Below, piece by piece: positions 7,020 to 52,476 of a stretch of 64,000 bases of DNA (its first letter is position 1; the number at the start of each line of letters is the position of its first letter). The notes under the pieces were generated by a model. That model worked only from the letters and a program-made list of their open reading frames with translations, was not told the DNA's origin and did no database searches. Location of the stretch: positions 1,258,247 to 1,322,246 of the forward strand of contig CM082594.2 in assembly GCA_040954595.2 (NCBI GenBank). Reading direction: 5' to 3'. Source of the DNA: Balanoglossus misakiensis (Eukaryota; Animalia; Hemichordata). The position numbers and the translations under genes were made by a program.

Positions 7020-7205
7020 GAGGTTATAAACGGCTAGCGAGGGTATTTGGTTGCGGATATAAGACCTCTCAGGTGAAAATTAGCATATTTGGGTGAAATA
7101 ATCACCTCGCTGCGCTCGGTGATTATTTCCCGCCAAATATGCTAATTTTCACCTGAGAGGTCTTATATCCGCAACCAAATACCCTCGCTAGCCGTTTATA
7201 ACCTC
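7020..7205. repeat. Near-perfect 186-bp palindrome at the Crypton 3' end
   Basis: GAGGTTATAAACGGCTAGCGAGGG... pairs with ...CCCTCGCTAGCCGTTTATAACCTC. Apex is CC-TC-GC-TGC-GC-TC-GG. Confidence 0.97.
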
Positions 7206-8139
7206 TAATTGATGAACAGTCTTTGTGCTTGTTTATTTTTCTGTGTTACCTCCACCTGTCTTAGCAGTTGCTAATCTAGAATACAAGCTATTGTATTTCC
7301 CATTAAGCACCAGTTCTCACTTGGTAAGAGAATACCCAGTAGTCGCTGACCGATGTTTACTTTATTAACTTAATCCGTGGATGGGGCACACAGATTAAGT
7401 CGTTAGCAGGTGATTAATGGGAAATGGATAGCTTTTATTCTGGATTAGCAAATGATAAGACAGGTTGGGAAAACGGAGAATGGAACGTACTTCGCCATTT
7501 ATAACTTTCATGTTTGCAGCCCCCTGTGGTACTAGGTGTCGGAAATGGGTAAGCACACCCTTCCAGCATGCTACACCCGTCAAGACTGACCCAAAGAGAC
7601 AGATTTAAGTTGAATTTGACTTAACTAACAAATTACTGTTGCAAGTCAAATCCATATTTTGACTTTATCTCTGACTGAGCGCAGCGAGTCTGAGAGACAC
7701 TCCACGTCTTCCTCTTCACAAGCAGCCCACTTTGTTTACATAAGTTTCAGTAGTATCCATAATGGTTCTAAAGTTGGTGGCTCGAGACAATATTTCGGGC
7801 AAAACTGGACAGATGCTGAAGTTCGGTATTTGGAATGATTGTCAGGTCACCTGTTATTATATGAACGTGAGGTTCACAAGTGTAAATCCAATATTTAACA
7901 TTACTTAAAGGGACAAATTACTCAAATTCTCTTTTGAGCTTATTTGATCAATTGTGTTTGATATGAAATGTGCCTATTATGCTGTTTGACTTCTTTAACA
8001 TGCTTAAATACTGGCCAATAAATAACTCCACTATGTTTGAAATTAAACCAGATAGTACAATAATACATTCCAAATGTCATATGTGATAACATCATGCTTT
8101 GGACTTTTTTACTTTATATATTACATAACATGTTACGGA

Positions 8140-8370
8140 GGGGGAGAGAGGTGAGAGAAGGAATGTGAGAAAGGAGAGAAGAAAAGCAAGAGGGCGGAAA
8201 TGAGAATGTCAGGATGGAAAGGGGATGAGGGGAGGACTTTGACAGAAGGGGAGGGGAGAGACCGAATAAGTGAAGGTGAGAGAGGAAGTGGTTAGACAGG
8301 AAGAAAGGGAAATTAAAGCTCAACCACCACCACCACCACAATCATCATCATCACCATCATTGCCATCATC
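8140..8370. repeat. Purine-rich low complexity followed by (CAC)n/(CAT)n microsatellite
   Basis: GA-rich tract followed by CACCACCAC...CATCATCAT. Confidence 0.8.
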
Positions 8371-8403
8371 ATTCTGGAGGCATCGTGGCCTGTATTGGCC
8401 CAA

Positions 8404-8828
8404 GGGCATCATGGGCCAAAAAAACTGATTCAGTTAAATGTGCATAAACCACACTTTTGTACGAACTCCTGTAACCGGTGACGCAAGTCGTGAGTGAATT
8501 TGTGGGCGTGTCGCGACCTTTTCTGTGTACGTGATGCAGAGTGATATATTGGTGACCCCCAGCCACCCCCACACCCTTTGATAACACACTTCTTAAACTT
8601 TCTTTACATAGAATGGATTTCTCAAACCTTCCTTACCAAAGTTCTGATTAAAGACATCTATCTTCTAGGGTACTACCAACAGCGTTTCACGTGACTGTAG
8701 ACAAGCAGCAAGTACCTGTACACAGACAAGGGCGTGCGCGCGTCAACAATAATTAACGAATGTTTTTACCGCCGTGTGTTTTATGCACATAAACACTGAA
8801 TCAGCTTTAATATTGTCCCATGATGCCC
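8404..8828. mobile_element. Old MITE with about 50-bp imperfect TIRs
   Basis: GGGCATCATGGG...CTGATTCAGT...ATGTGCATAAA-CACAC at 8404 versus its reverse complement at about 8774-8828. No clear TSD. Confidence 0.6.
8603..8675. mobile_element. Diverged terminal fragment of the foldback family at 12840-16909
   Basis: TTTACATAGAATGGATTTCTCAAACCTTCCTTACCAAA...CTA matches about 16839-16909. Confidence 0.7.
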
Positions 8829-10097
8829 CGTGAGTTGTCAGGGTACCAAACTGACAATGCTCGAGAAAAAATGAAGTGTTGACATGCATGTTGTTAAGGG
8901 GTATCACAATGCATGTTATAGACGCTGGTTTCTCTTAGCAATAGCGTAGAGGCGTAAGGATGGGTTGATCTTGTGATTAAGAATTTTGGCAAAGAAACGG
9001 AAATTGTGCCATTTAGTTTTGTATTAAACCCTATTCGCGTATTTTATGTTAAAGCACGAAATACTGCAATAATGAGATACGGTAGTATTTAACACATATC
9101 ATATATGATATAATATAGCTTTATCAATACCAGTGAATTTTGTGACGTCATTTCTGTACATTTTTTTTTCTTTTATTTAAAACGCACAATGTTACATCAA
9201 CAAATCAAAAGAAGAAACGAACTGAAAACTCACATCATAGCTTCAAAATTTATTACACTTTCTGGATGGTTGCATGATTCCTAAGGCTTGTATACCTTGA
9301 ACCTCAATGTCACGCGGGAGGATTGGTGTTAATGTAACGGGGAATTAAACTCTATCGATGGGGATAACTCGCTTGGCTAATACTGAGAGGTACCTATATG
9401 GAATCGTGCTGACGTCCAGATACATCGACACGAACACTGGGTATTTATGGTAGCAACTGAGAATATAAGAATTTACTACTCGACCACTTGCGTTCTGAGG
9501 ACAAGAAGGACACAAATAGTCCGCCATCCAAAAGACCGTTCCAGCATTTTATTTTTACCCGTCAAAAGACGCGGAGATATATTTTTAGATGAAAGATCCA
9601 TGCATACTCAGATTGCATAGTACTTGTCTTCCTTGTGTTCCTTAAAATAATGAATGTATTGTATTTTCTTTTCTTTTCATCAGGAATGCGATAACTTTCT
9701 TAACACTTCAAAAGTTTCTTTACTCTTCAATCACTTCTGTCTCAACTTTTAAGTTTAACTTTTACTTCCAAATCTCAGGTCACAAACTTTATAGACTGCT
9801 AAACAATTGTCTTCCTAGTGTTGTATGCGCCACTTGTGAATTTTTGCGAGTGAGATTCACGGGCGTTTGAGCACAATTTATACAAAAGATGTTTATCGCC
9901 TTTAGAAAAACGTTCGCGTAGAATCAATGACGTCATGGTAAATTTTAGCTGCATGCTCCAATAGGGATGATGGGGAGACTACTTGTTGTAGAGCACCTGA
10001 AAATGTACGTATTTCGTCACTTCCTTTTCGCGAAATTTAATTCTTAACGGCATCTTAGTTTTAAGATTTGTGATTTCTTTTTTCTTCAGTTGTACAT

Positions 10098-10390
10098 TTG
10101 CATCACGGGATACTTCTTTGTAGACTATCGAACCTTGGCATCTCAGACACAGTACTAACATGGTTTACATCTTACCTTCAATATAGATATCAAACTGTAA
10201 TCATCGAAAACACTGCAAGTTCACAGTCACCTCTCGTATACGGGGTGCCACTGGCCCTCTCTTGTTCACCATTTATATAGCCCCACTTTATAGTAAACTG
10301 ATTCGTCCCCATATCCTACAATTTCATCAGTACGCCGATGATAACCAGCGATACCTCGCCTTTTCCCATCAAGATTCAACCTCTGACGTT
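10098..10390 (+). pseudogene. LINE reverse transcriptase fragment (CR1/L2-like)
   Basis: HGILLCRL...WFTSYL...YGVP, then GPLLFTIY and QYADD in shifted frames. Confidence 0.8.
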
Positions 10391-10399
10391 CCTGTCTTC

Positions 10400-10683
10400 T
10401 AAGGATTGTTGAACTTTAATTCATGCAGGAATTCACACTCAAGACCCCTGTTCATACCAATGTGCCAAACAGATACTTACAAACACTCCTTCATTCCGCG
10501 AACCATTATTGACTGGAACCACTTTCCTGATAACATTGTAACTAGCACAAACCTAGAGCATTTTAAAGCTGGTCTTTCAGGAATAACTAGTCATCACGAC
10601 TAAAATCACCTTGCGCACCTGCAGGATTACTGCTCAATTTCTGAGTTACTCTGCAGTATTATACAGATACAGATACAGATACA
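10400..10683 (+). mobile_element. 3' end of another LINE with (ATACAG)n tail
   Basis: ORF2 C-terminus-like TDTYKHSFIPRTIIDWNHFP, short UTR and ATACAG tandem tail at about 10661-10683. Confidence 0.75.
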
Positions 10684-12010
10684 CTTCATCATACTGTCAG
10701 GTTCAAAAATAACCACGAAACGAATTCTTATGTGAAAGGATGCGTAAGACTACAATAAAATCACGCTCAACTTCAACTACACTCTGGGACTTCTCTCTTG
10801 TCCCTCGTATGAACTCACATGCCAACTCAAAGGGCCATTTTCATACGCCAGACCGTCTCCCTTGGGGTCATTAAAACATCACGACTTCATCACCAGACCG
10901 TCTCTCTTGCGGTCATCACAAAAACTTCAACAACTCCTCAAAAACCTATTAAACGTCACTACACTTCACGGCATCACTTCAACAAAAGAATACACATTTA
11001 CAATGTCGAAAACAAGGCAAAAACTTGGTGGAAAACAATATCAAATTAAAGCTGCAAGCAGCGTTGAAGGGGCCCAAGCATAGAGTTAATAACCATTAGA
11101 CTCCATTCAGGGTTGTACCATTAAAATGCGTAGGCTGTATTTACTCTGGATGTGGAGATATGGGGAAGTAGGCAACCACCCGAAATGGATGTCTTACAAG
11201 TACAAACACAACAACCAAAGGTGAACTTCTACGTTGTAAGTACTTCAGTTACTTCAAAGGTCAGCTGAGGGTATCCAAAAATTGGGCCAAAAATTAGGAT
11301 TCCTATTTGGTTCATATTCAAGACAACGGAAAATCCTTGCTGTTTGGGTTTATCAAATTAGATATGGCCATAATAATGAGTTACGCAAGTAAGTTACAGG
11401 TAGCATTTAGCATTTCATGACGCAGAGGGTCCTACCCTACCCCTCCAAACACCTGGCTATACATGATGTGCATGCTAACATATGGAAAGCAGGTCAATGG
11501 ACACCTGATGTCACCCAAAAATTTGACAAAAAATGTTCATTCCTGTTTATGTCATGTGCAACAAATCCTACATTTGCAGCCCTTTCACTTTGCCTACCAT
11601 TAGGTATGCACGTAATACATGAATCAAGCAGGTGTCGCAGGTATCCGCCTGTATTTGGCATTTCATGATAGTTTCGCTCCGAATACCAAAGCTGCACTTG
11701 TACAACGGGCTGAGATATGGCACTGTACGACAGAGGTCATCCAAATCAACTTATACATTTGGGCAAAAACAAACTGACACTTACATTCGTCCCTGAGGAA
11801 CAAAAACCACATCTATTGCCCTGTTGGCTAGTGTCCAATTAAATGTACAAAATCAATGACTTAGGCAGGTGCAACAGGTGACCCCACCGTTGGTATATCT
11901 TTATGGTCCCATCCGTATATGCCCCCCCCCCCCACGCCAAAGCTGCATGCATCTGCTGTGGATGCTCACTAAGCAAAAGTAGGTGAAATGTCACATAAGA
12001 TCGCACATAA

Positions 12011-12749
12011 GGCTGCATTCACAAACACCTATTCAGGGGGGATGCGGGAGAATTCAATTTTTTTACCGCTAATTTTCACATGCCCCCCCCCCCCCGTACA
12101 GAACCCGACAAATTTCAAATCCCCCCTTCCGAACTACCAAAATTTTGAAATCCCCCCCTCCCCATTTTCTTTCACAGAGCAAAACACATCACCTAGTATC
12201 TATCTTGTAAAAAAAGAAAAACAGCGCTCCCATTTTTTAAGTATTTGTATCCTGTGTTGGGAGACATTGTAAACCGAGAATTGAAGGGGGTGGGTTTGGG
12301 AGGGGGTGCACGTAAGAAAATTTTATAAAATACAGAGATCAAAGCTGCATTTTAATGAACCCGGCAAAGGCAAATTAACTCAACTACCGGTATGTTGGGG
12401 AGGACAAATTTAACCGTCGACGCTCAGAGTTATCATGGGGTTGGGGCAAGTCCCCTGACCTGGGACACTAGATAAACCAATCAATGATTGAAAGGTGTTG
12501 ATGAATGGACGGGGTGGGTGTGGGAGGGGGTGTCCGCCTCCCCATTAGAATTTTTTTTTAAATAAAGGGCGCGAAACTGCATTTTTGTGGACTCAAAATA
12601 AATATTTAGTCGTCAAAGTTTTCAAGTCCCCCCCCTTTCAGTCCCTAAATTATTTCAAATCCCCCCTTTACATACCCTCAATTTGTTTCAAATCCCCCCT
12701 TCAATTCTCCTGCCCCCCTCCCCCTCCTGAGGTGTTTGTAAATGCAGCC
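12011..12749. mobile_element. PIF/Harbinger-type MITE
   Basis: TIR GGCTGCATT(C/T)ACAAACACCT and TAA target duplication (12008-12010 and 12750-12752). Confidence 0.85.
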
Positions 12750-12839
12750 TAACTTGATAGGAAAATCGGACTTCATATTGATCCATTTGCAACAAATACC
12801 ACACTAGCATCCCTTTCATTGACCCCACAATTACGCATG

Positions 12840-15800
12840 TAGTCCAGGAGATAGGTGCCGTTAATCAGAATTTTTGGTAAGGAAGGTTTGAGAAGTCCAT
12901 TCTATGTAAAAAATGGTGCTGATTCCAAAAAAGTCAGTCTTATTGACCCCACTCAAGACAAAATTGCCATTTTGGCCATTTTTAACCCAAAAATGGTCTT
13001 TTTTAGAAAACACTAAAAACACACTGTTTTCGTCACATTCTGAGATCTGATGACATATGATATGCTTATTCTATGTAAAATATGGTGAATATTACGAAAA
13101 AAGTAGTCCGATTGACCCAAAACAACAGAAAATTGCCTTTTTGACCATTTTTTGCCCAAAAAACGTCATTTTTAGAAAAAATTTAAAACACACGGTTTCT
13201 TCATAATGATTGATCTGTTGATATATGGAAAGTCAATTCTGTGTTAAAAGTGGTGACTTTAAAAAATAAAGCAGTCTTTTTGACCTCAATCAATACAAAA
13301 ATGCCATTTTTGGCCACTTTTTGAGGTCAAAAAAGGTCATTTTTACAAAAAAACTAAAAATAAATTGTGTTGTTCATATTCAGAGATCATTGGGTATATG
13401 AAATGTCCATTCTATGTAAAAAATGGTTCTGATTCCAGAAATAGCAGTCTTATTGACCCTACTCAAGAAAAAATGCCATTTTTGCCACTTTTTGCCCAAA
13501 AACGTCATTTTTAGAAAACACTCAAAATTTATATATTTTCTTCACTTTCGGAGATCTGATAATGTATTTTATTCCCACCCTATGTTAAATTTGGTGATTA
13601 TTCCAAAAAAGGCAGATTTATTGACCCAACCTAATGCAAAAATGCCCTTTTGGAAAGTTTTTGCCCAAAAAGGCCATTTTTAGAAAAAAAATTAAAAACA
13701 AACTTTTCATCATAAAGCTCAGAGATCATGTGATATATGAAATGTTCATCCTATGTAAAAATTGGTACTGATTCCAGAAATAGCAGTCTTATTGATCCTA
13801 CTCAAGAAAAAATGGCATTTTTGCCACTTTTTGCCCCAAAAACGTCATTTTCAGAAAACACTCAAAATGTATATAATGTATTTTCTTCACTTTCGGAGAT
13901 CTGATAATGTATTATATGCCCACTATATGTGAAAAATTTCCAAAAAAGCAGTTTTATTGATGCCACTCAAGATAAAAGTGCCTTTTTGGCAAGTTTTTGC
14001 CCAAAAAGTGTCATTTCTAAAAAATACGAAAAATATGCCATTTTCTTCCCATTGGTGATCTAATGATAAATAAAAGTAGGGACATTTAAAAAAAACCACT
14101 CTTGCTGACCCCACAGAGGGAAAAACTACCATTTTGGCCTCTTTGCTCAAAAAGGTAACTGTTAGAAAAAATAAATACAAACTTATTCCTTCATATTCAG
14201 AGCCCTTGTGATGTATGTAAATTCGTTTTTTTTGTGTGTGTTTTTTTTGTGCAAAAAATATGCTGATACCAGCACAACGGTCTTATTGAGACACCCCGCT
14301 CAGTACAAAATTGCCATTTAGCCATCTTTTGGTCAACAATAGGCATTTTCAGAAAACAAATATAATTGATGTTTTGCCTTTTGTGTTCTGATGTTGTATA
14401 TGCATATTTAAAACGCCATAACCATATAATATCAATTAAATTGATGATATTGAAAGACAGAGTTGCCACAATTTGGCACATTTAGCCCAAAACTGAACTC
14501 AACAATAAGATGATCCATGTATACGCACTGTCTACTATAAGTCGATTATGCGTGGTGTGAAATATTTAGGTTCAGATATGCCAGCTCGGGAGAGATTGTT
14601 GAAATTTATTCTCTTCAATCTGAATACAAATTCAGAAATTATATTATAATTTATATCATGATACCTCCGTCATACTGATTGGACAGGAGTGCAACCCAAT
14701 TGAACGATGCTAGAATACTCAATAGAGCACTGCTAAAACTGACCCCTGAACTAGCACGCAGCAAGGAAAATGTGGGCTTAAACCAAATAAACATAATAAA
14801 AACACTTAAATTCCTTGACGTTTTAATTTGGAACTGCTGTAGGGGAATATTTGGGCAATGTGCAATGCCTTTCTTTTGTCATCTGTATCATGTTTAGAGC
14901 TTGGTCCCGGGCGGCGTGTTTACATTCATCGACGCGAGTTTTGTTCAATTCGTAACTTCTTTTCCTCTCGACGCTGTTTCATCATCATTATGATTTCAAC
15001 TTGGGCTAATTTTGCAAAAACTCCAAATACAAACATTTTTTCGGTACAAAATGGCTAAAAGGATAAATTTTTCTTGAGTAGATCTATTTTTGGCTACAAA
15101 TAGCCAAAAAGGCAATTTTGACTAGAGTGGGGCCAACCAGACTGCCGTTTTTGGAATAGTCACCAAATTTTACACAGAATGGACTTTTCATACATGATCA
15201 GATCTCTGAATATGAAGAAAACAATTTGTCTTTAGTTTGTTTGTTTGTTTTTAATGAACATTTTTGACCAATAAAGTGGCCGAAATTACAAATTTCAATT
15301 GAATAGGGTAAGTAAGACTTCCGTTTTTGGAACAGTAACCACGTTTCAATATAGAATGGGATTTTATTTATAATGAGAAAGTGAAGAAAAGAGAATGCTA
15401 TTAATATATTCTTAAAAATAAAAAATTGTGCAAAACTTAGCCAAAAAGGCGATTTCATCATGGTTAAGGTCATTAAGACTGCATTTCTGGAAACAACACC
15501 TATTTTACAATAAATGTACTTTTCACACATCATAGAATCTCCAAATAAGAATCAAACAGTTTGTTTTTAATGATTTTCAAAAAGTGGCTTTTTGGGCAAA
15601 AACTTGTCAAAAAAGCACTGTTTTCTTGAGTGGCGCCAGTGAAAATTTTTTTTTGATTTTTTTCACATAGAGTGGGTATATAATACATCATCATCTCCGA
15701 AAGTGAAGGAAATATAAAAGTTTTGGGTGTTTTCTAGAAATGACACTTTTTGGGCAAAAACTTGCCAAAAGGCACTTTTATCTTGAGTGGCATCAATAAA

Positions 15801-16909
15801 ACTGCTTTTTTGGAAATGTTTCACATATAGTGGGCATATAATACATTATCAGATCTCCGAAAGTGAAGAAAATATATAAATTTTGAGTGTTTTCTGAAAA
15901 TGACGTTTTTGGGGCAAAAAGTGGCAAAAAGGGCATTTTTTCTTGAGTAGGATCAATAAGACTGTTATTTCTGGAATCAGCACCAATTTTTACATAGGAT
16001 GAACATTTCATATATCACATGATCTCTGAGCTTTATGATGAAAAGTTTGTTTTTAACATTTTTTCTAAAAATGGCCTTTTTGGGCAAAAACTTTCCAAAA
16101 GGGCATTTTTGCATTAGGTTGGGTCAATAAATCTGCTTTTTTGGAATAATCACCAAATTTTACATAGGGTGGGCATATAATACATTATCAGATCTCCGAA
16201 AGTGAAGAAAATATATAAATTTTGAGTGTTTTCTAAAAATGACGTTTTTGGGCAAAAAGTGGCAAAAATGGCATTTTTTCTTGAGTAGGGTCAATAAGAC
16301 TGCTATTTCTGGAATCAGCATCATTTTTTTACATAGAATGGACATTTCATATATCCAATGATCTCTGAATATGACAAACACAATTTATTTTTAGTTTTTT
16401 TGTAAAAATAACCTTTTTTGACCTCAAAAAGTGGCCAAAAATGGCATTTTTGTATTGTTTGAGGTCAAAAGGACTGCTTTATTTTTTAAAGTCAACACTT
16501 TTAACATAGAATTGACTTTCCATATATCACCAGATCAATCATTATGAAGAAAACCGTGTGTTTTAAATTTTTTCTAAAAATGACGTTTTTTGGGGAAAAA
16601 ATGGTCAAAAAGGCAATTTTCTGTTGTTTTGGGTCAATCGGACTACTTTTTTCGTAATATTCACCAAATTTTACATAGAATAAGCATATCATATGTCCTC
16701 AGATCTCACAATGTGACGAAAACAGTGTGTTTTTAGTGTTTTCTAAAAAAGACCATTTTTGGGTTAAAAATGGCCAAAATGGCAATTTTGTCTTGAGTGG
16801 GGTCAATAAGACTGACTTTTTTGGAATCAGCACCATTTTTTACATAGAATGGACTTCTCAAACCTTCCTTACCAAAAATTCTGATTAACGGCACCTATCT
16901 CCTGGACTA
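12840..16909. mobile_element. Foldback-type non-autonomous element with about 1.2-kb modular TIRs
   Basis: 12840 to about 14020 is a near-identical inverted repeat of about 15733-16909, built from diverged roughly 170-bp subrepeats that continue inward. Termini TAGTCCAGGAG...CTCCTGGACTA. No coding spacer. Confidence 0.9.
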
Positions 16910-17349
16910 AAAGACAGTATAGGCTGGGTACAAAAAATATGAAATATAATATTTAAAAATCTTCTTCTCAAAATTGACTTGGCCCAGGGCCTTGAAATTT
17001 GGCATGTAGGACACTGACCATATGGTCCGCAAAATGAATGCACAGAATTTTGATATCGTCATTCATATGCAAATTAGGCCAATTTGAAAACTTTGCCCAT
17101 ATATGGTCATCAGGTCATGTGACTAATTAAACATTCACGAGGGTACTGCACGAGCTCTCATAGACCTGCACCCGTGTGCCAAGTTTGAGAGTTGTAGGTT
17201 CAGCCGTTTCCAAGATCCTAGTTGGCGAAAAAACTGCACAAGAAAAAGAAGTAGAAGAAAAAACACAGTAAAACCAATAGGGCACAAGCGCCTGAGGGCG
17301 CTTGGTCCCCTAATCAAAAGCGGTTAATAACGGTCAGTCAACTCACGTC

Positions 17350-20300
17350 TACTAACTCTTCTTATGTGAAAGGATGCGTAAGACTACAATAAAACTCAAA
17401 GGGCCTCTCTTCAATGTTAGTCATCATACCCTTCCACCCTGTGATTTTGATGAACACTTTTCCCCCCAGCTTTATAATTCATTTTGTGTTGCCCATCTAA
17501 ATGTCAGATCATTAAACAGAAACGTTGATGCCTTAAAATTACTATATGAAGATATTATCAAGTCCAAATTCGCTATCATTGGAATTTCTGAAGTATGGGA
17601 CCCAAATAACTTAAGTATTTGTAATATGCAAGATTACACATTAGAAGTGAAGTCTCGTGAAGTAGGAAGGGGTGGTGGGGTTGGGGCTTACATACATTCA
17701 TCAGTAATCTACAAGCTGCTTCGAGCAAGTGTCAGTCACTCAGAATCACTCTGGATGGAGGTACAGGTTAAAAATACGAAGATAATTATGGGAATAATCT
17801 ACAGAAAACCTAATACTGATATAACAGAATTTCAAATTAGTCTCGTGCAAGTTTTAAATGAGTTCAGATGTGACAAAAATAATTGTATTTTAATGGGCGA
17901 TTTTAATATTGATACTAACATAAGACTGACCAACCCCAATATAGATTCATATCTATCCTCCTTGGAATGTATAGGCTTAAGACAGCTGATATCTATCCCA
18001 ACCAGAGTGACTAGTTCATCTGAAACTTTAATTGACCACATCTACACAAAAAATAATCAACGTCCTATTCATGCTGGCACTATAATCACAGATATTTCAG
18101 ACCATTTCCCTGTGTATACTCTTTTAGAAAATATTCCTCTAAAATTGCCACAAAAAGAGAAAATTATTTTCAGAAATTTCAAAAACTATAGTCCCTCCCA
18201 ATTTTACGACGATCTTGAAATCACAAAATGGGATTCTGTGTACCATTCCTCTGATGCTAATGAGGCTTACAACAATTTTTATTCAGTCTTTAATGAAATT
18301 TGTGATAAACATGCACCTATTTCTACAAAATCCTATAGTACCAAAAAAAAAAAAAACCTTGGATCACCAAATCACTTAGAAAATCTATTAACACCAAACA
18401 TAGGCTATATAACAAATTATATAAATCAAAATTTAATAATGCTGTTGCTGTTGATAATTATAAAAAATATCGAAATATTTTATCGGCTTTACTCAGGAAA
18501 GCCAAACAGATGTACTATATCAATATTTTTATACAAAATGAAAATAACACTACTGCAATATGGAAAACAATTAGAGAGATACTTGGAAGCCAAGGTAATG
18601 CCAGTCAATCTCTGCCAGATAATCTGTGTGTTAAGTCTTATGGTAAGGTACGAACCGTAAATAAGAAAACTGACATTGTCAATGAGCTAAATAACTACTT
18701 TGTTGGTATTGGTCCAGACCTTGCTAGTAAAATAAAGTCTAACAATTGCAACTTCAATAATTACCTCAAGGCACCCATCTCAAACTCAATCTTTCTTGCC
18801 CCAACAACTCAGTTTGAAATACAAAAAATTATTTGTAGCCTAGATCCTTATAAAGCTTGTGGCCAAGATCAAATTCCTGCCGGACTTCTTATAGATGGAG
18901 CTGCTGTAATATCTAAACCATTAGAATACATATTCAACCTCTCCTTTCAATAAGGAATATTTCTGAAAGCCCTTAAATCAGCAAAAGTTATACCAAGTTT
19001 CAAGAAAGGAACCACTGATGATCCAGGAAATTACAGACCAATATCAATTTTACCTCTTATAAGCAAAGTCTTAGAAAAAATAGTCAACTCCCATCTTACC
19101 AACTTTGTAGAACAATTTAATATTCTATATGAACATCCGTATGCCTTTCGACAAAAATATAGTACCAAACTCTCTCTGATCAATCTTGTCAATTATCTCA
19201 TTAAGCAACTTGATGCTGGCAGAATTACACTTGGCATTTTCCTTGACTTTTCAAAAGCCTTTGATACCATTGATCATACAATATTACTATCTAAACTCTC
19301 TCACTATGGTATACGTGGACGTCCTCTACAATGGTTTACAGATTATTTAAAAGATAGATGTCAACATGTTTGTGCTGATGGCCATATCTCATCTAGCCAT
19401 AATATTACATGTGGAGTTCCACAGGGTTCTGTCCTTGGACCTACTCTATTTTTTATTATTTATTAATGATATAGCCCTTTCAACATCCTTCTTCAACTTT
19501 CGGCTGTTTGCTGATGATACAAATCTGTCCCATACAAAAGTGATATCAATCTGAACCATGTTGACAGCCAGTTACAGCTAGTACTAGATTGGTGCAATGC
19601 CAACAAACTCACTATAAATCACCTAAAAATAAATTACATTATTTTCAGAAACCAAAGACGAAAGGTTTCCCATGTTGGTTTTCTCCACATAAATAATATG
19701 GTCATAAATGAGGTAGAAGCTGCATCATTTGTTGGCATTCTCATTGACAGGCATCTTACCTTGTCAAAACATATCCAGATGCTAAACACAATCATCAGAA
19801 AGAAAGTTGGCATTCTCTTTAAACTCAGACATTTTGTACCTACCCCTATACTTACCTTACTCTACAAATCACTTATCCAACCACATATAACATACAGCCT
19901 CGAAGTATGGGGGTCAACATATCCTTCATATCTCAACCGTATTAGGTTATTACAAAAATGGCAGTAAGAGCAATAACCTTCAGTGTTTTCACAGCTCATT
20001 CAACTCCTTTATTCCATAAATTGAAAATCCCTGATATTTTCAAATTACATAAGCTCCGGGTATGCTCCTTCATGTATGATCTTGTAAACAATAATCTTCC
20101 ACAAAGGCTGACAACCTAATGTCAATTACCTCTCCATGATTACAGTACACGCCACAAAAACCAAGGTAATCTCCATATTCCAAGTGTAAATACAACAATG
20201 GGCAAATTTGCAATATCTGCAAATTTGTAACTAATTTTTATACCGCAATGTACAGAGGAATGGGAAAGGACTTGACTAGCACCTGCTATTTTCTGTTCCC

Positions 20301-20404
20301 AATTACCTTAAGTTTTCATTCAACCTGTCTCACTCGTGAGTTATGTAAATACTTTTCAACTTTTCAACAAGGGTAATAAATTGAAATGAAATTGAATTTA
20401 ATTG
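17350..20404 (+). mobile_element. L2/CR1-group LINE, copy B
   Basis: Same sequence, TSD (17340-17349 and 20405-20414) and flanks as copy A. The APE domain is open (ORF 17374-18660), RT has stops and frameshifts, and there is a roughly 265-bp deletion near 20218. Confidence 0.92.
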
Positions 20405-20659
20405 AACTCACGTCATCAGAGTAGACAAAGAAAATACGATCACGCAATATTTCAACGATCAACTCTCTCAAACTATAGATTAAAAAGGCTGATTATTCAG
20501 TTCAATGTCATTCTATCACAGTTCTTTTGCGATAGCAGACGATTCAAGAGTCTTCCCTTCTTCATTCCACGAGACCTCTTTTCTTCGTCGCCAGAACTGC
20601 TTCAACTACATGCTTCTGGATTCGACGCCCCTCTGATCAAACAACAGATCCATCGTTGA

Positions 20660-21510
20660 AAACCCGTCCACGCATTCCACGCAGTCAACAGTCAGCACCA
20701 ACCTTTTTTCTGTTCTCGTTTCCTTCTGAAGCAGACCATTGGATCGTCCGTTTCGCCAGCTTTTTTTCTTCTTACTTCTTTCTCGGTTCAGGAATCAGTG
20801 GCAACATCTCTGCCTACCCGGATTCTAACACCATCTTGTTACGGCCGGTCGTCCTCCTCATCGGCTTCTGTGGGGAATCAGCCACGTCCGAAGGCTGACG
20901 CCGTACATTCTCTCCATCTCCTTCTCCACCCAACATATTCACAGAGTCCGAGAGAGGTACCCGGCAGATCGTAAACCTTTCGTAGACAGAGACTTACAAC
21001 AAGTTTTCCGAGTAACACAAAGTTCTGGTTTATTACTGGTCACACGTAAGAATTACACGACTCGATCCATGCTCGTTGACTCCCATCACGGATCTCCGGT
21101 GATAAACGTGTGATCTCAAATTTCACCACACCTTATTAATACGTTTGTCAAGTATTAAGTCATAAAAGGAACACGTCATCTTAATATTTCTTAAACATGA
21201 ACTTAGCGCGTGATATCTCTATCTCGTTCTGACATGTATCAATTACACAATCTTGTTTACTCTGGGTCAAGTACCTATGTCAATACTGGACTAAAACCAT
21301 ATAAGTGAATGACTTTTTACGTAATCATAAACAAGATCTATGATCGTTAAACTCAATCGTGACAATTGTATTACCGCTGGTTTCTCATGATTGTTCATGC
21401 ATCGGGGAATCTGTAGCGATGAGGTAACGGGCTCTGACGAGAACCGTGATCCACGGAGACACGTATCTGATTTACGTTCATTTATTGTCCGGAATTATTA
21501 TAGTACATCA
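20660..21510 (-). mobile_element. Possible LTR-retroelement 5' LTR and leader remnant
   Basis: Minus strand: TGATG start at 21510, AATAAA near 21030, imperfect tRNA-Ala-like PBS (GGTGGAGAA) near 20922-20930, purine-rich leader. No partner LTR and no gag seen. Confidence 0.25.
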
Positions 21511-24500
21511 AATACGCCCAGTAAAGTACACGAGGAAGGGAACGAGCTCAGTAGCCTGAGGTACTCCCATCTCCCGTAAGATTATTCTCCCCTAACTTTG
21601 GAAACAAAGTTCTCTTATAATTACTTTTCTCAAAGCGTGGTTAACCATGTAAATGTCACAAATACATGTAGTGGCCAGTGTCGTGCCCATTAATTTTGAG
21701 TGTTTGGTGGGGTCAACCTTTGCGTCAACATTGATTAGCCAGGCCATGCAGAGCTAGTGGCCAGTGTCGTGCCCATTAATTTTGAGTGTTTGGTGGGGTC
21801 AACCTTTGCGTCAACATTGATTAGCCAGGCCATGCAGAGCTAGTGGCCAGTGTCGTGCCCATTAATTTTGAGTGTTTGGTGGGGTCAACCTTTGCGTCAA
21901 CATTGATTAGCCAGGCCATGCAGAGCTAGTGGCCAGTGTCGTGCCCATTAAATTTGAGTGTTTGGTGGGGTCAACCTTTGCGTCAACATTGATTAGCCAG
22001 GCCATGCAGAGCTAGTGGCCAGTGTCGTGCCCATTAATTTTGAGTGTTTGGTGGGGTCAACCTTTGCGTCAACATTGATTAACCAGGCCATGCAGAGCTA
22101 GTGGCCAGTGTCGTGCCCATCAATTTTGAGTGTTTGGTGGGGTCAACCTTTGCGTCAACATTGATTAGCCAGGCCATGCAGAGCTAGTGGCCAGTGTCGT
22201 GCCCATCAATTTTGAGTGTTTGGTGGGGTCAACCTTTGCGTCAACATTGATTAGCCAGGCCATGCAGAGCTAGTGGCCAGTGTCGTGCCCATCAATTTTG
22301 AGTGTTTGGTGGGGTCAACCTTTGCGTCAACATTGATTAGCCAGGCCATGCAGAGCTAGTGGCCAGTGTCGTGCCCATTAATTTTGAGTGTTTGGTGGGG
22401 TCAACCTTTGCATCAACATTGATTAGCCAGGCCATGCAGAGCTAGTGGCCAGTGTCGTGCCCATCAATTTTGAGTGTTTGGTGGGGTCAACCCTTGCGTC
22501 AACATTGATTAGCCAGGCCAGAGCTAGTGGCCAGTGTCGTGCCCATCAATTTTGAGTGTTTGGTGGGGTCAACCCTTGCGTCAACATTGATTAGCCAGGC
22601 CAGAGCTAGTGGCCAGTGTCGTGCCCATCAATTTTGAGTGTTTGGTGGGGTCAACCCTTGCATCAACATTGATTAGCCAGGCCATGCAGAGCTAGTGGCC
22701 AGTGTCGTGCCCATCAATTTTGAGTGTTTGGTGGGGTCAACCTTTGCGTCAACATTGATTAGCCAGGCCATGCAGAGCTAGTGGCCAGTGTCGTGCCCAT
22801 TAATTTTGAGTGTTTGGTGGGGTCAACCTTTGCGTCAACATTGATTAGCCAGGCCATGCAGAGCTAGTGGCCAGTGTCGTGCCCATCAATTTTGAGTGTT
22901 TGGTGGGGTCAACCCTTGCGTCAACATTGATTAGCCAGGCCAGAGCTAGTGGCCAGTGTCGTGCCCATCAATTTTGAGTGTTTGGTGGGGTCAACCCTTG
23001 CGTCAACATTGATTAGCCAGGCCAGAGCTAGTGGCCAGTGTCGTGCCCATCAATTTTGAGTGTTTCGTGGGGTCAACCCTTGCGTCAACATTGATTAGCC
23101 AGGCCATGCAGAGCTAGTGGCCAGTGTCGTGCCCATCAATTTTGAGTGTTTGGTGGTGTCAACCTTGATTAGCCAGGCCATGCAGAGCTAGTGGCCCGTG
23201 TCGTGCCCATCAATTTTGAGTGTTTGGTGGGGTCAACCTTTGCGTCAACCTTGATTAGCCAGGCCATGCAGAGCTAGTGGCCCGTGTCGTGCCCATCAAT
23301 TTTGAGTGTTTGGTGGGGTCAACCTTTGCGTCAACCTTGATTAGCCAGGCCATGCAGAGCTAGTGGCCAGTGTCGTGCCCATCAATTTTGAGTGTTTGGT
23401 GGGGTCAACCTTTGCGTCAACCTTGATTAGCCAGGCCATGCAGAGCTAGTGGCCAGTGTCGTGCCCATCAATTTTGAGTGTTTGGTGGGGTCAACCTTTG
23501 CGTCAACATTGATTAGCCAGGCCATGCAGAGCTAGTGGCCAGTGTCGTGCCCATTAATTTTGAGTGTTTGGTGGGGTCAACCTTTGCGTCAACATTGATT
23601 AGCCAGGCCATGCAGAGCTAGTGGCCAGTGTCGTGCCCATCAATTTTGAGTGTTTGGTGGGGTCAACCCTTGCGTCAACATTGATTAGCCAGGCCAGAGC
23701 TAGTGGCCAGTGTCGTGCCCATCAATTTTGAGTGTTTGGTGGGGTCAACCCTTGCGTCAACATTGATTAGCCAGGCCAGAGCTAGTGGCCAGTGTCGTGC
23801 CCATCAATTTTGAGTGTTTGGTGGGGTCAACCCTTGCGTCAACATTGATTAGCCAGGCCATGCAGAGCTAGTGGCCAGTGTCGTGCCCATCAATTTTGAG
23901 TGTTTGGTGGTGTCAACCTTGATTAGCCAGGCCATGCAGAGCTAGTGGCACGTGTCGTGCCCATTAATTTTGAGTGTTTGGTGGGGTCAACCTTTGCGTC
24001 AACATTGATTAGCCAGGCCATGCAGAGCTAGTGGCCAGTGTCGTGCCCATTAAATTTGAGTGTTTGGTGGGGTCAACCTTTGCGTCAACATTGATTAGCC
24101 AGGCCATGCAGAGCTAGTGGCCAGTGTCGTGCCCATCAATTTTGAGTGTTTGGTGGTGTCAACCTTGATTAGCCAGGCCATGCAGAGCTAGTGGAACGTG
24201 TCGTGCCCATTAATTTTGAGTGTTTGGTGGGGTCAACCTTTGCGTCAACATTGATTAGCCAGGCCATGCAGAGCTAGTGGCCAGTGTCGTGCCCATTAAA
24301 TTTGAGTGTTTGGTGGGGTCAACCTTTGCGTCAACATTGATTAGCCAGGCCATGCAGAGCTAGTGGCCAGTGTCGTGCCCATCAATTTTGAGTGTTTGGT
24401 GGGGTCAACCTTTGCGTCAACATTGATTAGCCAGGCCATGCAGAGCTAGTGGCCAGTGTCGTGCCCATTAATTTTGAGTGTTTGGTGGGGTCAACCTTTG

Positions 24501-25394
24501 CGTCAACATTGATTAGCCAGGCCATGCAGAGCTAGTGGCCAGTGTCGTGCCCATCAATTTTGAGTGTTTGGTGGGGTCAACCCTTGCGTCAACATTGATT
24601 AGCCAGGCCAGAGCTAGTGGCCAGTGTCGTGCCCATCAATTTTGAGTGTTTGGTGGGGTCAACCCTTGCGTCAACATTGATTAGCCAGGCCAGAGCTAGT
24701 GGCCAGTGTCGTGCCCATCAATTTTGAGTGTTTGGTGGGGTCAACCCTTGCGTCAACATTGATTAGCCAGGCCATGCAGAGCTAGTGGCCAGTGTCGTGC
24801 CCATCAATTTTGAGTGTTTGGTGGTGTCAACCTTGATTAGCCAGGCCATGCAGAGCTAGTGGCACGTGTCGTGCCCATTAATTTTGAGTGTTTGGTGGGG
24901 TCAACCTTTGCGTCAACATTGATTAGCCAGGCCATGCAGAGCTAGTGGCCAGTGTCGTGCCCATTAAATTTGAGTGTTTGGTGGGGTCAACCTTTGCGTC
25001 AACATTGATTAGCCAGGCCATGCAGAGCTAGTGGCCAGTGTCGTGCCCATCAATTTTGAGTGTTTGGTGGTGTCAACCTTGATTAGCCAGGCCATGCAGA
25101 GCTAGTGGAACGTGTCGTGCCCATTAATTTTGAGTGTTTGGTGGGGTCAACCTTTGCGTCAACATTGATTAGCCAGGCCATGCAGAGCTAGTGGCCAGTG
25201 TCGTGCCCATTAAATTTGAGTGTTTGGTGGGGTCAACCTTTGCGTCAACATTGATTAGCCAGGCCATGCAGAGCTAGTGGCCAGTGTCGTGCCCATCAAT
25301 TTTGAGTGTTTGGTGGGGTCAACCTTTGCGTCAACATTGATTAGCCAGGCCATGCAGAGCTAGTGGCCAGTGTCGTGCCCATTAATTTTGAGTG

Positions 25395-25592
25395 TTTTTT
25401 TTTTTTTTTTTTTGTAAATATTTACTTTTTCATGTGTCCTTTTTATTAAAATATGTTATTGCAATGTTATTTGTGAAGTCTACATTTCTGTACATTAAGC
25501 GTGGCAACTGATGAAATGATTCCTCTTGTCCAATTGTCAAGAGCATATTTTTTATTGACTTATCTACAAATATAACATACATGTATATACAT

Positions 25593-25628
<36 letters not shown>

Positions 25629-28600: not shown

Positions 28601-28860
28601 TCTCTTTAATTTTGTACTTCAACCAATCCCAAACACTCGAAGGATTAGGTAATGCAGAACTTTCCTGCACCCAAACTGAGAAATTATCATGAATCAAATC
28701 AACGTATTTCCCATCATGCAACAAACTTGTATTAAACTTCCAATAAGAGGGGCCTCTAAGCATATGCTCATATTTAACAATCAGTAAAATTGCCGAATGA
28801 TCTGAAAAGATACAAGGAATGATATCTGTTTCAAATACTTCATTAAAGATTGAATCAATT
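25395..28860 (-). mobile_element. L1/Tx1-clade LINE, 5'-truncated, young, with two poly(A) tracts
   Basis: Poly(T) at 25395-25413 and 25594-25626. Exact TSD TGAGTGTTT (25389-25397 and 28862-28870), extendable to 17 bp with 2 mismatches. Confidence 0.93.
25707..28859 (-). CDS. L1/Tx1 ORF2: end of the APE domain, complete RT and C-terminal CCHC knuckle (5'-truncated)
   Basis: Uninterrupted 1018-aa ORF plus 32 in-frame upstream codons containing IFSDHSAI. Motifs WRPISLLN, IDFEKAFD, GVRQGDPISPLLF, YADD, CTFC-x8-H-x4-C. Confidence 0.93.
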   Translation of the reverse strand: MDSIFNEVFETDIIPCIFSDHSAILLIVKYEHMLRGPSYWKFNTSLLHDGKYVDLIHDNFSVWVQESSALPNPSSVWDWLKYKIKEITMKYSKQKSRARKEKIKDLENILQYLEEQLASSPSEISITHYNTVKQDLQVEYDYVTEGAIIRSRANWTELGEKNTKYFFQLEKANAVRTQINYLIKSDGEMAYSTKEKKLVIKSFYQDLYSSTLRDSEANANFFHLQKIFLDSVNIPKLDREQAGLAEGKITMDEAYEAVKSFPANKTPGNDGLPVDFYKTFWPLIGSYVLNSLNYAFDSGHFSISQRQGVITLLEKPGKDRRYIQNWRPISLLNSDYKIATKCLAKRMESLLPSLIHETQTAFVKNRFIGDTIKLVEGILDYTAEKDIPGILLTIDFEKAFDKLEWSFLLNALKAFNFGQNFIHWIEVLYTNISSCVMNSGLSTGYFLLSRGVRQGDPISPLLFILALEIFLISLRVEGDIKGIKVGDYEIKNASYADDLTCFLSDVTSANTLFDLLKDFKCISGLTVNSGKCEALWLGKKRKCTSKPLGVKWPDGKIKIVGIYISYDKSNAARLNMAKPTENLNNCLKFWKMRDLTLLGRVQIIKSLGISRFLYILNLTEPHVDHLKYINKLLFKFLWKGPDKIARKTVFGSLKDGGLGMPDIYTIYKAQRINWLRRYLDVEISHPWKLFLTKKLKSVGGIKVLLKCNYDLKYLNVTLSDFELSMLKTWRELNTMFFSNKHFLNQSIWNNSHILIGGKSVFYKDLYDAGFFYVGSLFDRNGKVHNWDNVSTRIPHSAFIRWCSIIYALPREFTGSVDMSNFNLVNQEEEISVGIEDTTYSLKDCKTKIITPLIISKSFIPPKAQIYFDHVLNTNILTWENIYKLPFKLTLDVKIREFQWKLTHNILMTNYYLNKMKPEVAPSSVCTFCKKDNETILHLFYNCEFVIGFWHRIFNSCGRYFGNLSFHSMTAEQILFGDSTLSLLCNFLILTAKRFIYICRCDKKLPYFFHYKSFLHGIYKVELFIAKRTGKLDKHVKKWEDFRHIFDRSVL

Positions 28861-42535: not shown

Positions 42536-42586
42536 AGAGGGAAACGGTCTGGTAATCAATGTTGTGACACTAGCATTAGGCCTTAA

Positions 42587-43026
42587 ACCCCGGTGCGGAA
42601 AGTACTGGGGTTCGGATTAACGTGTGTTTGTACAGTTGTTTATTTGGGAGTGGTCGTCGTGCATAATAACTGTGTAATTGATCTCATGTACATAGAAAAT
42701 AATTGAACACTTTACACCTCTATGCGATTGACAGCTGTTTGAATGGCGTGGTTATTGTTTCCCAGGGATGCTTCTGAAAAGCACTGAAACCAGATTTCTC
42801 CCAAAATCATCGTTGTTTCAAAAGCTCGTGTACTTTTTCATCAATAACTTTATGTTGTGTGTGTTTATAAAGCCAACCACTGTCGTTGTGTGGTGTAATT
42901 CTTTATGCTTGGATCTGTTTGGGCCGATTTTCATAGAGCCAAGGTCGTTGGAGTTGTCTGTTGTCAGTCAAACGGCATTAAGATTCGCCACTGATTTGGG
43001 GGGTCTTTTATACCACGCATCGGGGT
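42587..43026. mobile_element. TTAA-specific MITE (piggyBac-like)
   Basis: TTAA at 42583-42586 and 43027-43030, TIR ACCCCG(G/A)TGCG. A single TTAA occurs at the paralogous empty site 55484-55487. Confidence 0.8.
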
Positions 43027-43084
43027 TTAATAATGTTTACGATATCAGGACAATTTATATCATATGAAGTTTTATGTATTCATA

Positions 43085-43551
43085 ATTATTATACATCTAG
43101 TGCCGAGAACAATAGATTTTGGCGTGCAATAAAAAGCCGTACGGAACGGTACGTACGGAACGCGCGTTAAATAAGTTTTAGGTTTCAAGGCGCCCCCAAC
43201 TCACCGTGTACAGGTATGCGTTGTTATGGTTGTGGACGGTTTCAAGACACCCCCACTCCAACGCACGTGCGCGCACGTAAACAAAAAACAAAGATGGCTG
43301 CTCACTGAGTCAACTGAGCGGTTTTCGATCGATTGTATCGGCATTTTTGGCGTTTTGAAAGCCAAGTAACATGCAACACAAGAACTAACGGAGATGTAAG
43401 ATGTATAATATGAAGGTTATTACAAAAATACCGCAAAGTATGCACTCGGACATTAGCGCAGCGCATCGCCCTCCGCTACGCGTCGGGCGATACTTGGCGC
43501 TAATGTCCTCGTGCATACTTTGCGGTATTTTCGTAATAACCTCATATTATT
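43085..43551 (+). mobile_element. Non-autonomous Crypton-like element with terminal hairpin
   Basis: ATTATT direct repeats (43085-43090 and 43546-43551) and a hairpin at about 43406-43549. Absent from paralogous sites 55427-55432 and 38482-38487. Confidence 0.8.
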
Positions 43552-50000: not shown

Positions 50001-50121
50001 AAGGAGTTGAATTGTTATTGACAGCGACCAGGTCGGTAGATTCTATAGGATGAAGAAAAAATGAAAAGACAGTCAGTACATAGCTAAATTCTCCTATACA
50101 AGGGCGTCTTCAATTGGTACA

Positions 50122-50172
50122 GTGACTGACTGACTGACTGAATGAATGAATGAATGAATGAATGAATGAATG
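50122..50172. repeat. (TGAC)n(TGAA)n microsatellite
   Basis: Direct reading. Confidence 0.9.
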
Positions 50173-51059
50173 ATGAACGGATGAGTCGTAATAATATGCT
50201 TCAATCATAGGGGCTTTGAAAATTATTTAAAAAAAAAAATAATGTACTCACAACCGACATTTATACAACAGACAGCTCAAGAAACTCCTCCATGTGTACA
50301 ATACTTAGCCAATTTAGTGACAACATCAGCTTGCAGAGCACGTGAGCACCGCTTTCGCCAGCCTGTGGTGCCCGCATATCTTTTTTGTTCAGCAGTAACA
50401 TGCACGACACATGCAGAGACACAAACGTCCATGTTGCAAATTGTAGATGAAAGCATCAGCTGCGCTGGTTTTATGGTCAGCATCACTGGCTGTTACATGA
50501 AAACTGTTTGTCACATACCTTAACCAACATATACGTGTATCTGTATGGAAAGAAAGTAGGCTCACCCCCGGTACAGTATTATTTTTTTTGCATGCACGCA
50601 ATGGCCTGAATTTGCTAAACTGGGATCATCTGCGCGCATTTCAAAACGTGCTCGTTGCTTAACTTCGCGTGCTTTACTACTCACAATTATTCCACTTGTG
50701 AACGAACACGTCACCCAATTTTACAGTGTAGCCATGTGGAAAACTGGTGACAAGGTAATGTTTCATTCGAAGATCAACCTACGTTCAGAAAGTTTGCATT
50801 GTGGTGAATTCTCACTGCTCTCGCAATGCGGTCTGTGGCTCACTGCCGCAGACCGCATTACACGTAGAAATAAATTCTGTACGTCACAGTTCGTAGGTCG
50901 CATAGGTCATGGAGTTAATCCATTATACATTGCGGCTTAAAATTTCTCGTGACCCTCTTATCATGCAGCTTGTGTGTTACTGACCACTGACGCATGTCAA
51001 AACACTCAATATTTTTTTTAAATTTGCAAAATCTTTCATTTTAAAGTCGTGATACTCAC

Positions 51060-51210
51060 TGCAGATAGCATTCTTTTCAGTAGGAACTATTTCTGCTGCC
51101 ATTTCAATATTGTCTGTATTCCATGTAAATATATTTCCTCCAATTGAACAGTCCCCCGCCACAGCTGCAACCTCTTCTGCAGTCAGAACTTTTGACCACA
51201 TGTATGTCAT
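51060..51210 (-). pseudogene. Pentraxin/LamG-like domain C-terminal exon fragment
   Basis: YMWSKVLTAEEVAAVAGDCSIGGNIFTW resembles the pentraxin C-terminal pattern (MW..VL...EI....C...GN...W). It ends at a GTGAGT donor (51059). Its upstream part is replaced by repeat DNA. Confidence 0.65.
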
Positions 51211-51554
51211 TTAGTCAAGACAATTTGGGAGAACTGTAGTTTAAAGCCTCCAAAGCTGCCACTTTTTGCATTATTTTCATGATTTTATTTTCCAACTTAA
51301 ATTGGTTCATCAAAATAAGCTTACTGATTGGTATACATAAACATCTTATCGATGCCCGATTGTGACTGCATGTTGCAATTGGAACATGCTATGTATTAAA
51401 ACGGTGCCTCACCGATTTAATCAGCCTTCATACAAACAATAGCAGCTAAGCAGCTATCGTGAAATGCGACGCCAAGTGATGACAAACCAATGCAAATGCA
51501 AGTAATATGGCTTACAACACTACATGTGACCAGACTCTTTGTTCTCTTGGGACA

Positions 51555-52476
51555 TTATCTATGATAATGCACTGGTACCAGTGCAATATCTGGATATTGC
51601 ACTGCACCTGGCATAATAAGATTCACTACAACAAACAAGATAGCTTTGACAGGAGGTGCTGCCTCCGGCGGGAAGAACTGCTTCCAGGTGCACACACTTG
51701 GCTCGTCCATCTTTCTTTGTCGTGATCTCTGCGCTGCAGGGCTCAACCTTTGGTTGGGGGTTCGTTTCTACCTCACACACGGATTCACCTGAAAGCTTGA
51801 TTTTTTTCGACGTACCAAAACTTCCCTGAAGTGCCTACGCTGACGTACAATCGAACATTCCTGATCAATATAAAACTACAAATTTACAAGTTCCGAGGAA
51901 AATGACAGAAAAATGGTACTTACAGACTGAGGATGTGCGCAATGGCGGCTGCAGGCCAGGAGAAAGGCACCCTTGATTTTCTGCAGGACACTTTCCATGA
52001 CCGATGGTTTATGTACATTCTCTTCAATGAAGCTACCAAAATCTTGGAAAATCCAGTCCATATCGTAAAAGCTACGCCCTTCGCTTTCGCTTGGGTGTCG
52101 GAACGTGCTCCATGGGTAATGAAAAGCTCGTGCTCGTCGCTACTTTCGGCCATGGTGTTTGTCTGTCGAAGGTTGAGTTCCGAATGATGATGGAAACGTG
52201 GCACCTCAATGACCACGTGACAAATGCCCTGGTTGACAAGTATCCAATCGAAATGAGTCATACACCAGGTGTATTTTGCGACGCTTGTGATTGGTTGATG
52301 TGGTTGAGAAGTTGTTTAGCATATATCAAGATCACAGATGTTGCGACGTATTGTAAGCCGGATAATGTACTCGTGTCGTGCAATCGTTTAGATATTGAAC
52401 GACACTCGGGCCTGCGGCCCTCGTGTCGTTCAATATCTGAACGATTGCACTCCACTCGTACATTATCCTTTACTTA
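51555..52476 (+). mobile_element. Non-autonomous Crypton-like element with terminal hairpin
   Basis: Hairpin 52360-52468 (GGATAATGTAC...GTACATTATCC) followed by TTTACTTA. The left end is inferred at TTATCTATGATAATGCAC and is less certain. Confidence 0.65.

Follow-up and report, generated by a model that had tools for sequence, protein, structure and literature searches.

The window analyzed here, a stretch of 64,000 nucleotides (nt) from the hemichordate Balanoglossus misakiensis, contains three transposable elements (elements 1, 2 and 3) that are likely transposons of the CryptonA type, the bottom strand of which is predicted to fold into a site that a tyrosine recombinase (YR), encoded by element 1, likely cuts and rejoins. 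Each element ends in a long hairpin (H1, H2 and H3, respectively), and the inner arm of this hairpin runs on, directly outside the left arm, as the reverse complement of the 5' end of the same element. Judged from the sequences, the pattern is real and conserved and corresponds to a CryptonA element whose ends have an integron-like design, for which we propose a mechanism. The features concerned are listed in Table 1.

Table 1. Coordinates of the elements, hairpins and complementary segments in the window (position 1 is the first letter of the window)
Feature	Position	Strand	Remarks
Element 1, CryptonA	4763-7210	plus	2.44 kb; TAATT at both ends (4763-4767, 7206-7210)
YR gene (DUF3504 + Phage_integrase)	4929-6613	plus	inferred intron 5281-5447; start codon uncertain
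5' end motif, element 1	4765-4775	plus	11/11 complement of 7009-7019
Internal complement, element 1	7009-7019	plus	directly outside H1 left arm
H1, terminal hairpin of element 1	7020-7205	minus	73-bp perfect stem, small bulge, 12 bp, GA/GA, 2 bp, c-GCA-g loop
H1 apex	7107-7117	plus reading	TC-GC-TGC-GC-TC
Element 1, second copy	62054-64000	plus	start approximate; in duplicated segment; hairpin beyond window end
Element 2, gene-less	43085-43551	plus	~460 nt; ATTATT at both ends (43085-43090, 43546-43551)
5' end motif, element 2	43087-43098	plus	12/12 complement of 43399-43410; just these 2 matches in 128000 positions
H2 with internal complement	43399-43549	minus	two GA/GA pairs, c-GTA-g loop
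H2 alone	43406-43549		apex 43472-43484
Element 3	51511-52476	plus	~960 nt; multi-copy family; CTTA at both ends (51511-51514, 52473-52476)
5' end motif, element 3	51511-51520	plus	9/10 complement of 52348-52357; 12 such matches in 128000 positions
H3 with internal complement	52348-52468	minus	three GA/GA pairs, c-GCA-g loop
H3 alone	52360-52468		apex 52406-52422

The ends of the three elements were fixed independently by empty sites; here and below, the data on empty sites (except that of element 2), joints and depth stem from contigs only (runs X1, X2, X3 and X5). For element 1, X1 and X2 contain a joint from 4764 to 7209 that skips 2444 nt, and one contig carries a single TAATT. The empty site of element 2 is a paralogous repeat within the window (near 55427-55437, minus strand), and that of element 3 is represented by a joint from 51510 to 52473 in X1, X2 and X3. 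All three elements possess a direct repeat of 4-6 bp at both ends that is single in the empty site, two of the empty alleles being one base off, and none has terminal inverted repeats. Among the copies in metagenome contigs, left and right overlaps differ. Weak crossover homology would agree with this, but the observation was left unused since short-read contigs may join flanks from different copies.

The initial annotation of this DNA had placed the three hairpins and their apices exactly, as confirmed by sequence reading and alignment, and the further TC/TC oppositions that it mentioned are all present (43446-7 against 43509-10 in H2, and two more in H3). It had referred to subterminal palindromes of animal Cryptons; the hairpins found here are instead terminal and form the 3' ends of the elements. 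The hairpins had also been described as unrelated in sequence. In accordance, blastn gave no match between H1 and H2, but the two share the motif ATAACCTC at the base of their arms. The window contains three copies of an apex motif, namely TC/TC or GA/GA adjoining a TNC or GNA triloop with at least 4 outer pairs, and none appeared in any of 20 dinucleotide block shuffles of it. When hairpins were sought without gaps, the scores of H2 and H3 greatly exceeded that of the sole other match; H1 needs a gap and was seen in the gapped alignment. In 6189 of 6346 depth in X1, the middle base of the H1 loop is T on the plus strand, giving a GAA loop. A fourth, short apex with a weak outer stem is located at 7670-7697 in the opposite orientation (GA-GC-GCA-GC-GA at 7677-7687 of the plus strand) and is possibly a remnant of another element.

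We regard the match of the inner arm to the joined ends, a feature absent from the initial annotation, as the strongest one. The 5' end motif of element 1 has 3 matches in 128000 positions, which is consistent with the pair plus the duplicated copy. When the ends were joined in silico, the stem crossed the junction, leaving an excess on the junction side of 2 bases in H1, H3 and most of the locus copies described below, and of 3 bases in H2. The symmetry of the duplex junction is weak (1, 5 and 5 of 12 positions in elements 1, 2 and 3), in contrast to the pair of inverted arms cited for the standard Crypton model in the consulted part of PMC3212892.

An alignment of 65 YR sequences provided at least 598 matching stretches in metagenome contigs, 420 of which were confirmed. 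The best 80 of these 420 were kept as loci (L001, etc.) and form 46 families at 80% nucleotide identity; their choice was based on the YR protein match and is independent of the presence of a hairpin. The complement to the 5' end was detected in 6 of the 9 multi-copy families with a readable 5' boundary, with letters that are family-specific on both sides. It was also present in the singletons L011, L013, L027, L032 and L065, for which the boundary was not fixed by other means.

A hairpin with TC/TC on the coding strand was observed in 11 of the 29 families having at least 600 nt after the YR match, and in three more with shorter flanks, namely L011 (whole hairpin), L024 and L064 (apex plus 10 pairs each). 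As the initial annotation had suggested, the strand is not random: the TC form lies on the coding strand in 14 YR families, the GA form in none. Several other families have contigs that break off within the left arm, or hairpins with partial deletions. Some 15 families, however, show no hairpin in the flank examined, so that the hairpin may not be universal among YR families. The contigs of L047, L049, L051, L053, L056, L057 and others end within the hairpin, and short-read assemblies will thus undercount hairpins. Hairpin-bearing YRs are dispersed over a quick YR tree, in which family 3 (L021, L067) is still marked as hairpin bearing; its strict apex match was later dropped, since the family has no long arms. 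Neither L048, with a hairpin that lacks the apex, nor L071, with an unrelated inverted repeat, was counted as positive. The apex pattern had 12 matches in viral contigs, none of them with long arms, and the hairpins had 0 matches in Rfam. At five loci (L036:2404-2592, L075:7804-8050, L018:3167-3280, L009:1798-1919 and L034:1-54), Crypton-type hairpins of other elements abut element ends, which suggests that elements insert into one another's end or internal junction sequences.

To assess the type of mismatch, we compared one hairpin per unrelated group, resulting in ten hairpins (seven loci plus H1, H2 and H3). In support of the initial proposal that the mismatches are not random, 20 of the 23 two-by-two loops were TC/TC, corresponding to GA/GA on the other strand, at a chance expectation of 0.0086 each; the remaining 3 were TT/GC, and reverse polarity occurred in 0 of 23. 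Among 16 control hairpins, TC/TC was found in 0 of 15 two-by-two loops. The binomial figure is overstated if all ten hairpins share one ancestor, in which case the point becomes the persistence of TC/TC while the stems diverged beyond recognition. All ten traced stems terminate in a C-G pair, and the loops read TNC or TAAC, which correspond to GNA or GTTA on the opposite strand; in L077, the apex is bulged and the trace ends before it. At 15 of the 20 TC/TC sites, the context is Y-GA-R, which favors sheared pairs. On the bottom strand, TT/GC reads as G.A plus A.C. A sheared A:C pair is named in the title of a reference within PMC3201870, and we tentatively extend this pairing to the TT/GC loops.

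The GA/GA pairs of the ten hairpins are up to 71 columns away from the loop. Those at 20-70 positions from it can form only when the long arms are paired within one strand, and the folded state is thus very likely under selection. A reading in which a protelomerase-type enzyme resolves the hairpin was rejected by reasoning, since resolution of the center alone would never give rise to GA pairs 20-70 bp from the apex. The proposal that structure rather than sequence is conserved was also borne out: among nine related hairpins, 42 of 67 pairs showed compensatory double changes, with the GA positions mostly kept. Arm-to-arm conversion could yield such covariation but should also erase mismatches. 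In L008, L020, L025 and L036, tandem mismatches recur every ~20 positions (3, 22-24 and 42-44 from the loop). This spacing approximates two helical turns and is absent in H2, H3 and L002.

The YR gene of element 1 was recognized by PF12012 (E 1e-8) and PF00589 (E 3e-5, under the curated cut-off), and the alignment columns R-K-H-R-H-Y are present, including the catalytic R-H-R-Y of CryptonA. Its named homologues, at roughly 40-58% identity, are from hemichordates, echinoderms, corals and molluscs. The open frames of element 1 and their Pfam analysis revealed YR frames only, without a reverse transcriptase or a second enzyme. The copy in the window is interrupted by stops at 5603 and 6170 and by frameshifts in exon 1. 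However, both stops read as sense codons in X1 contigs, and that at 6170 does so in X2, indicating that open YR alleles exist in a related sample. Searches with the YR alignment gave 129 pattern matches in prokaryote genomes and 39 in viral contigs, none of which was confirmed as a relative.

In X1, the summed contig depth was ~10,000-28,000 over H1 and ~350 over the YR gene. These values are not copy numbers, and the excess over H1 suggests many gene-less relatives. One derivative in X1 and X2, joining 4826 to ~7110, retains ~60 nt of the 5' end and the right arm only. Element 1 resides in a high-copy palindromic repeat (~4400-4762 and 7211-7600), which contains the inverted repeats 4689-4737/7489-7534 and 7254-7311/7409-7465 and has variable empty-site alleles.

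All three hairpins had been labeled Crypton hairpins. This label fits H1, which adjoins the YR gene; H2 and H3 lack a YR remnant and take it from the end architecture. No such remnant was detected in elements 2 and 3 by blastp (best E 0.039 among the analyzed proteins), profile search or Atlas, and their assignment to the Cryptons, by the end design that they share with element 1 in place of a gene, is tentative. Reverse transcriptase/RNase H and long inverted terminal repeats are absent from all three elements, as judged by open frames, Pfam and blastn. Gene-less elements are present at high copy, which fits the earlier suggestion of mobilization in trans, and elements 2 and 3 likely moved in this way. 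Element 3 also contains, on the minus strand at 51879-52146, an ATG in strong context followed by an acidic, frameshifted peptide directed away from the hairpin. Blastp, profile search and Atlas provided no homologue of this frame, which could be a decayed gene; if it were a YR remnant, the polarity of the fold would not follow transcription.

We lean toward the reading that the YR recombines the folded bottom strand. If this strand is exposed in single-stranded form, as may happen to a lagging-strand template, the inner arm would pair with both ends and hold them together; such a splint appears to be the most parsimonious role for an arm complementary to the two ends. By joining the ends thus held, the YR would release a single-stranded circle while the other strand stays, and the copy number could rise. 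In the circle, the stem over the junction, with its 2-3 extra bases, would provide the duplex needed for the exchange of one strand pair with an AT-rich target, and the junction would then be resolved by replication. Sheared GA/GA pairs and the GNA loop would both mark and stabilize the bottom strand, TC/TC on the top strand being a plain mismatch. The wider proposal, to which we give even chances, is that many animal CryptonA elements transpose as single-stranded DNA (ssDNA) circles: in the manner of integrons, a eukaryotic YR would excise and integrate a folded, self-splinted bottom strand on which sheared GA pairs and a GNA loop act as marks. The splint would perhaps be the origin of the internal complementary region (ICR) of DIRS elements.

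A number of observations weigh against recombination of the folded bottom strand. The initial claim that only one strand folds optimally found no support in the energy model (ViennaRNA with DNA parameters; two DNA parameter sets gave identical values and were counted as one). Computed energies barely differ between strands: whole hairpins reached -101.5/-103.5 (H1), -59.2/-63.6 (H2) and -46.1/-45.8 (H3) kcal/mol for top/bottom, the apices were ~0.5 apart, and H3 and L025 slightly favor the top strand. The model may undercount sheared pairs; strong stacking has been reported for tandem GA-AG (PMC8163305) and special stability for d(GNA) loops closed by a C:G pair (PMC3201870), in both cases according to the sections consulted.

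Further adverse points concern the incidence and the use of the hairpin. It is seen in just the 11 of 29 families mentioned above, and L001, L015 and L028, the nearest loci to the YR of the window, have none within 0.7-1 kb. The apex of H3 is lost in one diverged X5 contig. The armless derivative 4826-7110 has depths of 348 (X1) and 912 (X2), near that of the YR gene, although it may be carried along by the host repeat. The junction extension adds little energy: random tails did equally well in 0-9 of 60 trials, and for L036, L037 and L062 the flank of the integrated copy folds no worse than the circle. There was no end-to-end (circle) joint among the joints listed. The predicted model of the YR homologue P0003 is confident (pLDDT 90.6), yet its fold is nearest to QRICH1 and Cre, the integron integrase IntI (2A3V) ranking 36th with a TM of ~0.35; this model thus appears to lend no independent support to an integron-like reading.

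Other explanations were weighed as well. The bottom strand might fold for circle closure or second-strand priming, with the YR acting on a conventional duplex circle, as in Tn1549-type elements and the standard model for Cryptons, and with the GA/GA pairs and GNA loop serving a replication factor of host or element. This is an unlikely option, but one with several points in its favor. GCA loops with sheared G:A pairs mark the single-stranded replication termini of Streptomyces and resist single-strand nucleases (PMC4513846, in part), the ICR of DIRS elements likewise complements the two ends (PMC6681497, in part), the homologue model is Cre-like and has the Tn1549 integrase among its structure matches, and most GA/GA pairs are far from the junction. 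On the other hand, no Rep or polymerase is encoded, which leaves the YR as the sole candidate for joining the ends; the conserved excess of 2-3 nt sits exactly at the crossover; and the duplex junction has little symmetry.

The YR might otherwise act on the GA-bearing arm of a cruciform, extruded under supercoiling from the palindrome of an excised duplex circle, so that no free single strand is involved. The similar computed energies of the two strands agree with this, and integron-type sites are able to extrude from supercoiled DNA. However, ~100 bp would have to extrude across several mismatches and the first excision would have to proceed from duplex ends that lack symmetry, and we consider this course improbable. 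About as improbable, or slightly more so, is that ssDNA has no role at all: CTCG would be a directly repeated duplex protein site, or UC/UC loops would break double-stranded RNA (dsRNA) in the 3' end of the transcript, and the covariation would result from arm-to-arm conversion. Indeed, CTCG is the commonest mismatch context, several mismatches are spaced 18-19 bp, and conversion within palindromes can produce compensatory changes without selection. Nevertheless, the flanks vary (G.G, C.C, T.C, C.A), the TT/GC variant, which recurs, leaves neither arm with an intact CTCG, and perfect runs of 73, 51, 38 and 32 bp persist, long enough for dsRNA sensing. Conversion, moreover, should remove mismatches rather than keep them, the GNA loop and the 5'-end complement are left unexplained, and Rfam provided no match.

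Recombination of the folded bottom strand, the reading that we prefer, has precedents in bacterial systems (statements from cited papers in this and the next paragraph refer to the parts consulted, unless noted otherwise). Integron attC sites and the attP of the CTX phage are recombined as folded single strands (PMC4792948, PMC4246890). A site of either kind arises when one strand pairs with itself, with unpaired bases on a defined strand; the same is found here at the level of sequence only. As in attC/IntI, structure is conserved without sequence, one strand is distinguished by unpaired features, and there is little crossover homology (PMC4792948). In attC, extrahelical bases are read by the I2 domain (PMC4792948); here, tandem GA pairs and the GNA loop would act as strand marks. 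The stems are ~50-100 bp long, unlike those of attC, and an equivalent of I2 was not seen, no residue-level comparison having been made. In CTX attP(+), used by XerC/XerD, two separated inverted segments likewise pair within one strand to form the site, and neither works alone as a duplex (PMC4246890). That system differs in its host recombinases, its own single-strand replication and its insertion at dif (PMC4246890); here, the recombinase is encoded by the element, the site is complete only after the ends are joined, and the single-strand step is inferred.

The ICR of DIRS elements, which are also mobilized by a YR, likewise lies inside the element and is complementary to two stretches, the beginning of the left end and the last part of the right end (PMC6681497, PMC13465315). 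DIRS elements possess a reverse transcriptase and long inverted terminal repeats (PMC6681497, PMC13465315), in contrast to the elements described here, which have no reverse transcriptase, an inferred intron in the gene and a mirrored 5' end of ~10-24 nt (38 nt in L065). Streptomyces telomeres and the ends of IS200/IS605 are ssDNA hairpins that are read strand-specifically by protein, the former also with GCA loops and sheared G:A pairs, but their enzymes are others (Tap/Tpg priming and HUH transposase, respectively) and their hairpins much shorter (PMC4513846, PMC13565253). An HUH transposase, as in Helitrons and IS200/IS605, was not detected by Pfam, the YR being the sole gene. With the animal CryptonA elements of Kojima and Jurka (2011; PMC3212892), element 1 shares a single DUF3504-type YR with R-H-R-Y, a length of ~2.2-2.4 kb, the lack of reverse transcriptase and abundant non-autonomous derivatives. 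For animal Cryptons, that study found no terminal repeats, with "n.d." for all CryptonA in its supplement 1, whereas we observed direct repeats of 4-6 bp; the terms "palindrom" and "hairpin" do not occur in its text, whereas here there is a terminal hairpin plus an internal junction complement. A 2026 Glomhopper paper gives repeats as variable or undetected. In PMC5753468, which classes Eulor5 and Eulor6 as Cryptons, "hairpin" and "palindrom" do not occur (whole text). A 2026 review considers Crypton transposition undemonstrated and notes that a double-stranded circle is assumed (PMC13565253).

In open PubMed Central papers and bioRxiv, the literature covered by our search (Repbase, Dfam and subscription journals being outside it), we found no description of this end design in Cryptons. 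Palindromes are noted in some database entries for Cryptons, and the hairpin alone may be known. Since the end design names a substrate, a strand and a crossover, the mechanism of Cryptons becomes directly testable. It also offers a practical rule for locating Crypton ends and gene-less families, which published work has been unable to define in animals. If the proposal is true, a eukaryotic YR acts on folded single strands, an activity that, to our knowledge, is known of recombinases only from bacteria, and a possible tool for inserting single-stranded donors might follow.

Otherwise, the window is repeat-rich animal DNA with fragments of long interspersed nuclear elements (LINEs), an 86-bp satellite and the YR gene in two copies. 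The segments 1780-6718 and 59076-64000 are a duplication at 99.3% identity that contains LINE fragments together with the 5' part of the Crypton and its gene, and both copies share the stop position corresponding to 6170. The 86-bp satellite array at 21669-34364 is interrupted by a LINE with a 1056-residue frame (reverse transcriptase plus zf-RVT; 25707-28877, minus strand). Finally, 12840-16909 consists of a 169-bp unit in two inverted arrays, the arms of which are 1.2 kb long and 97% identical, resulting in a foldback-like arrangement.

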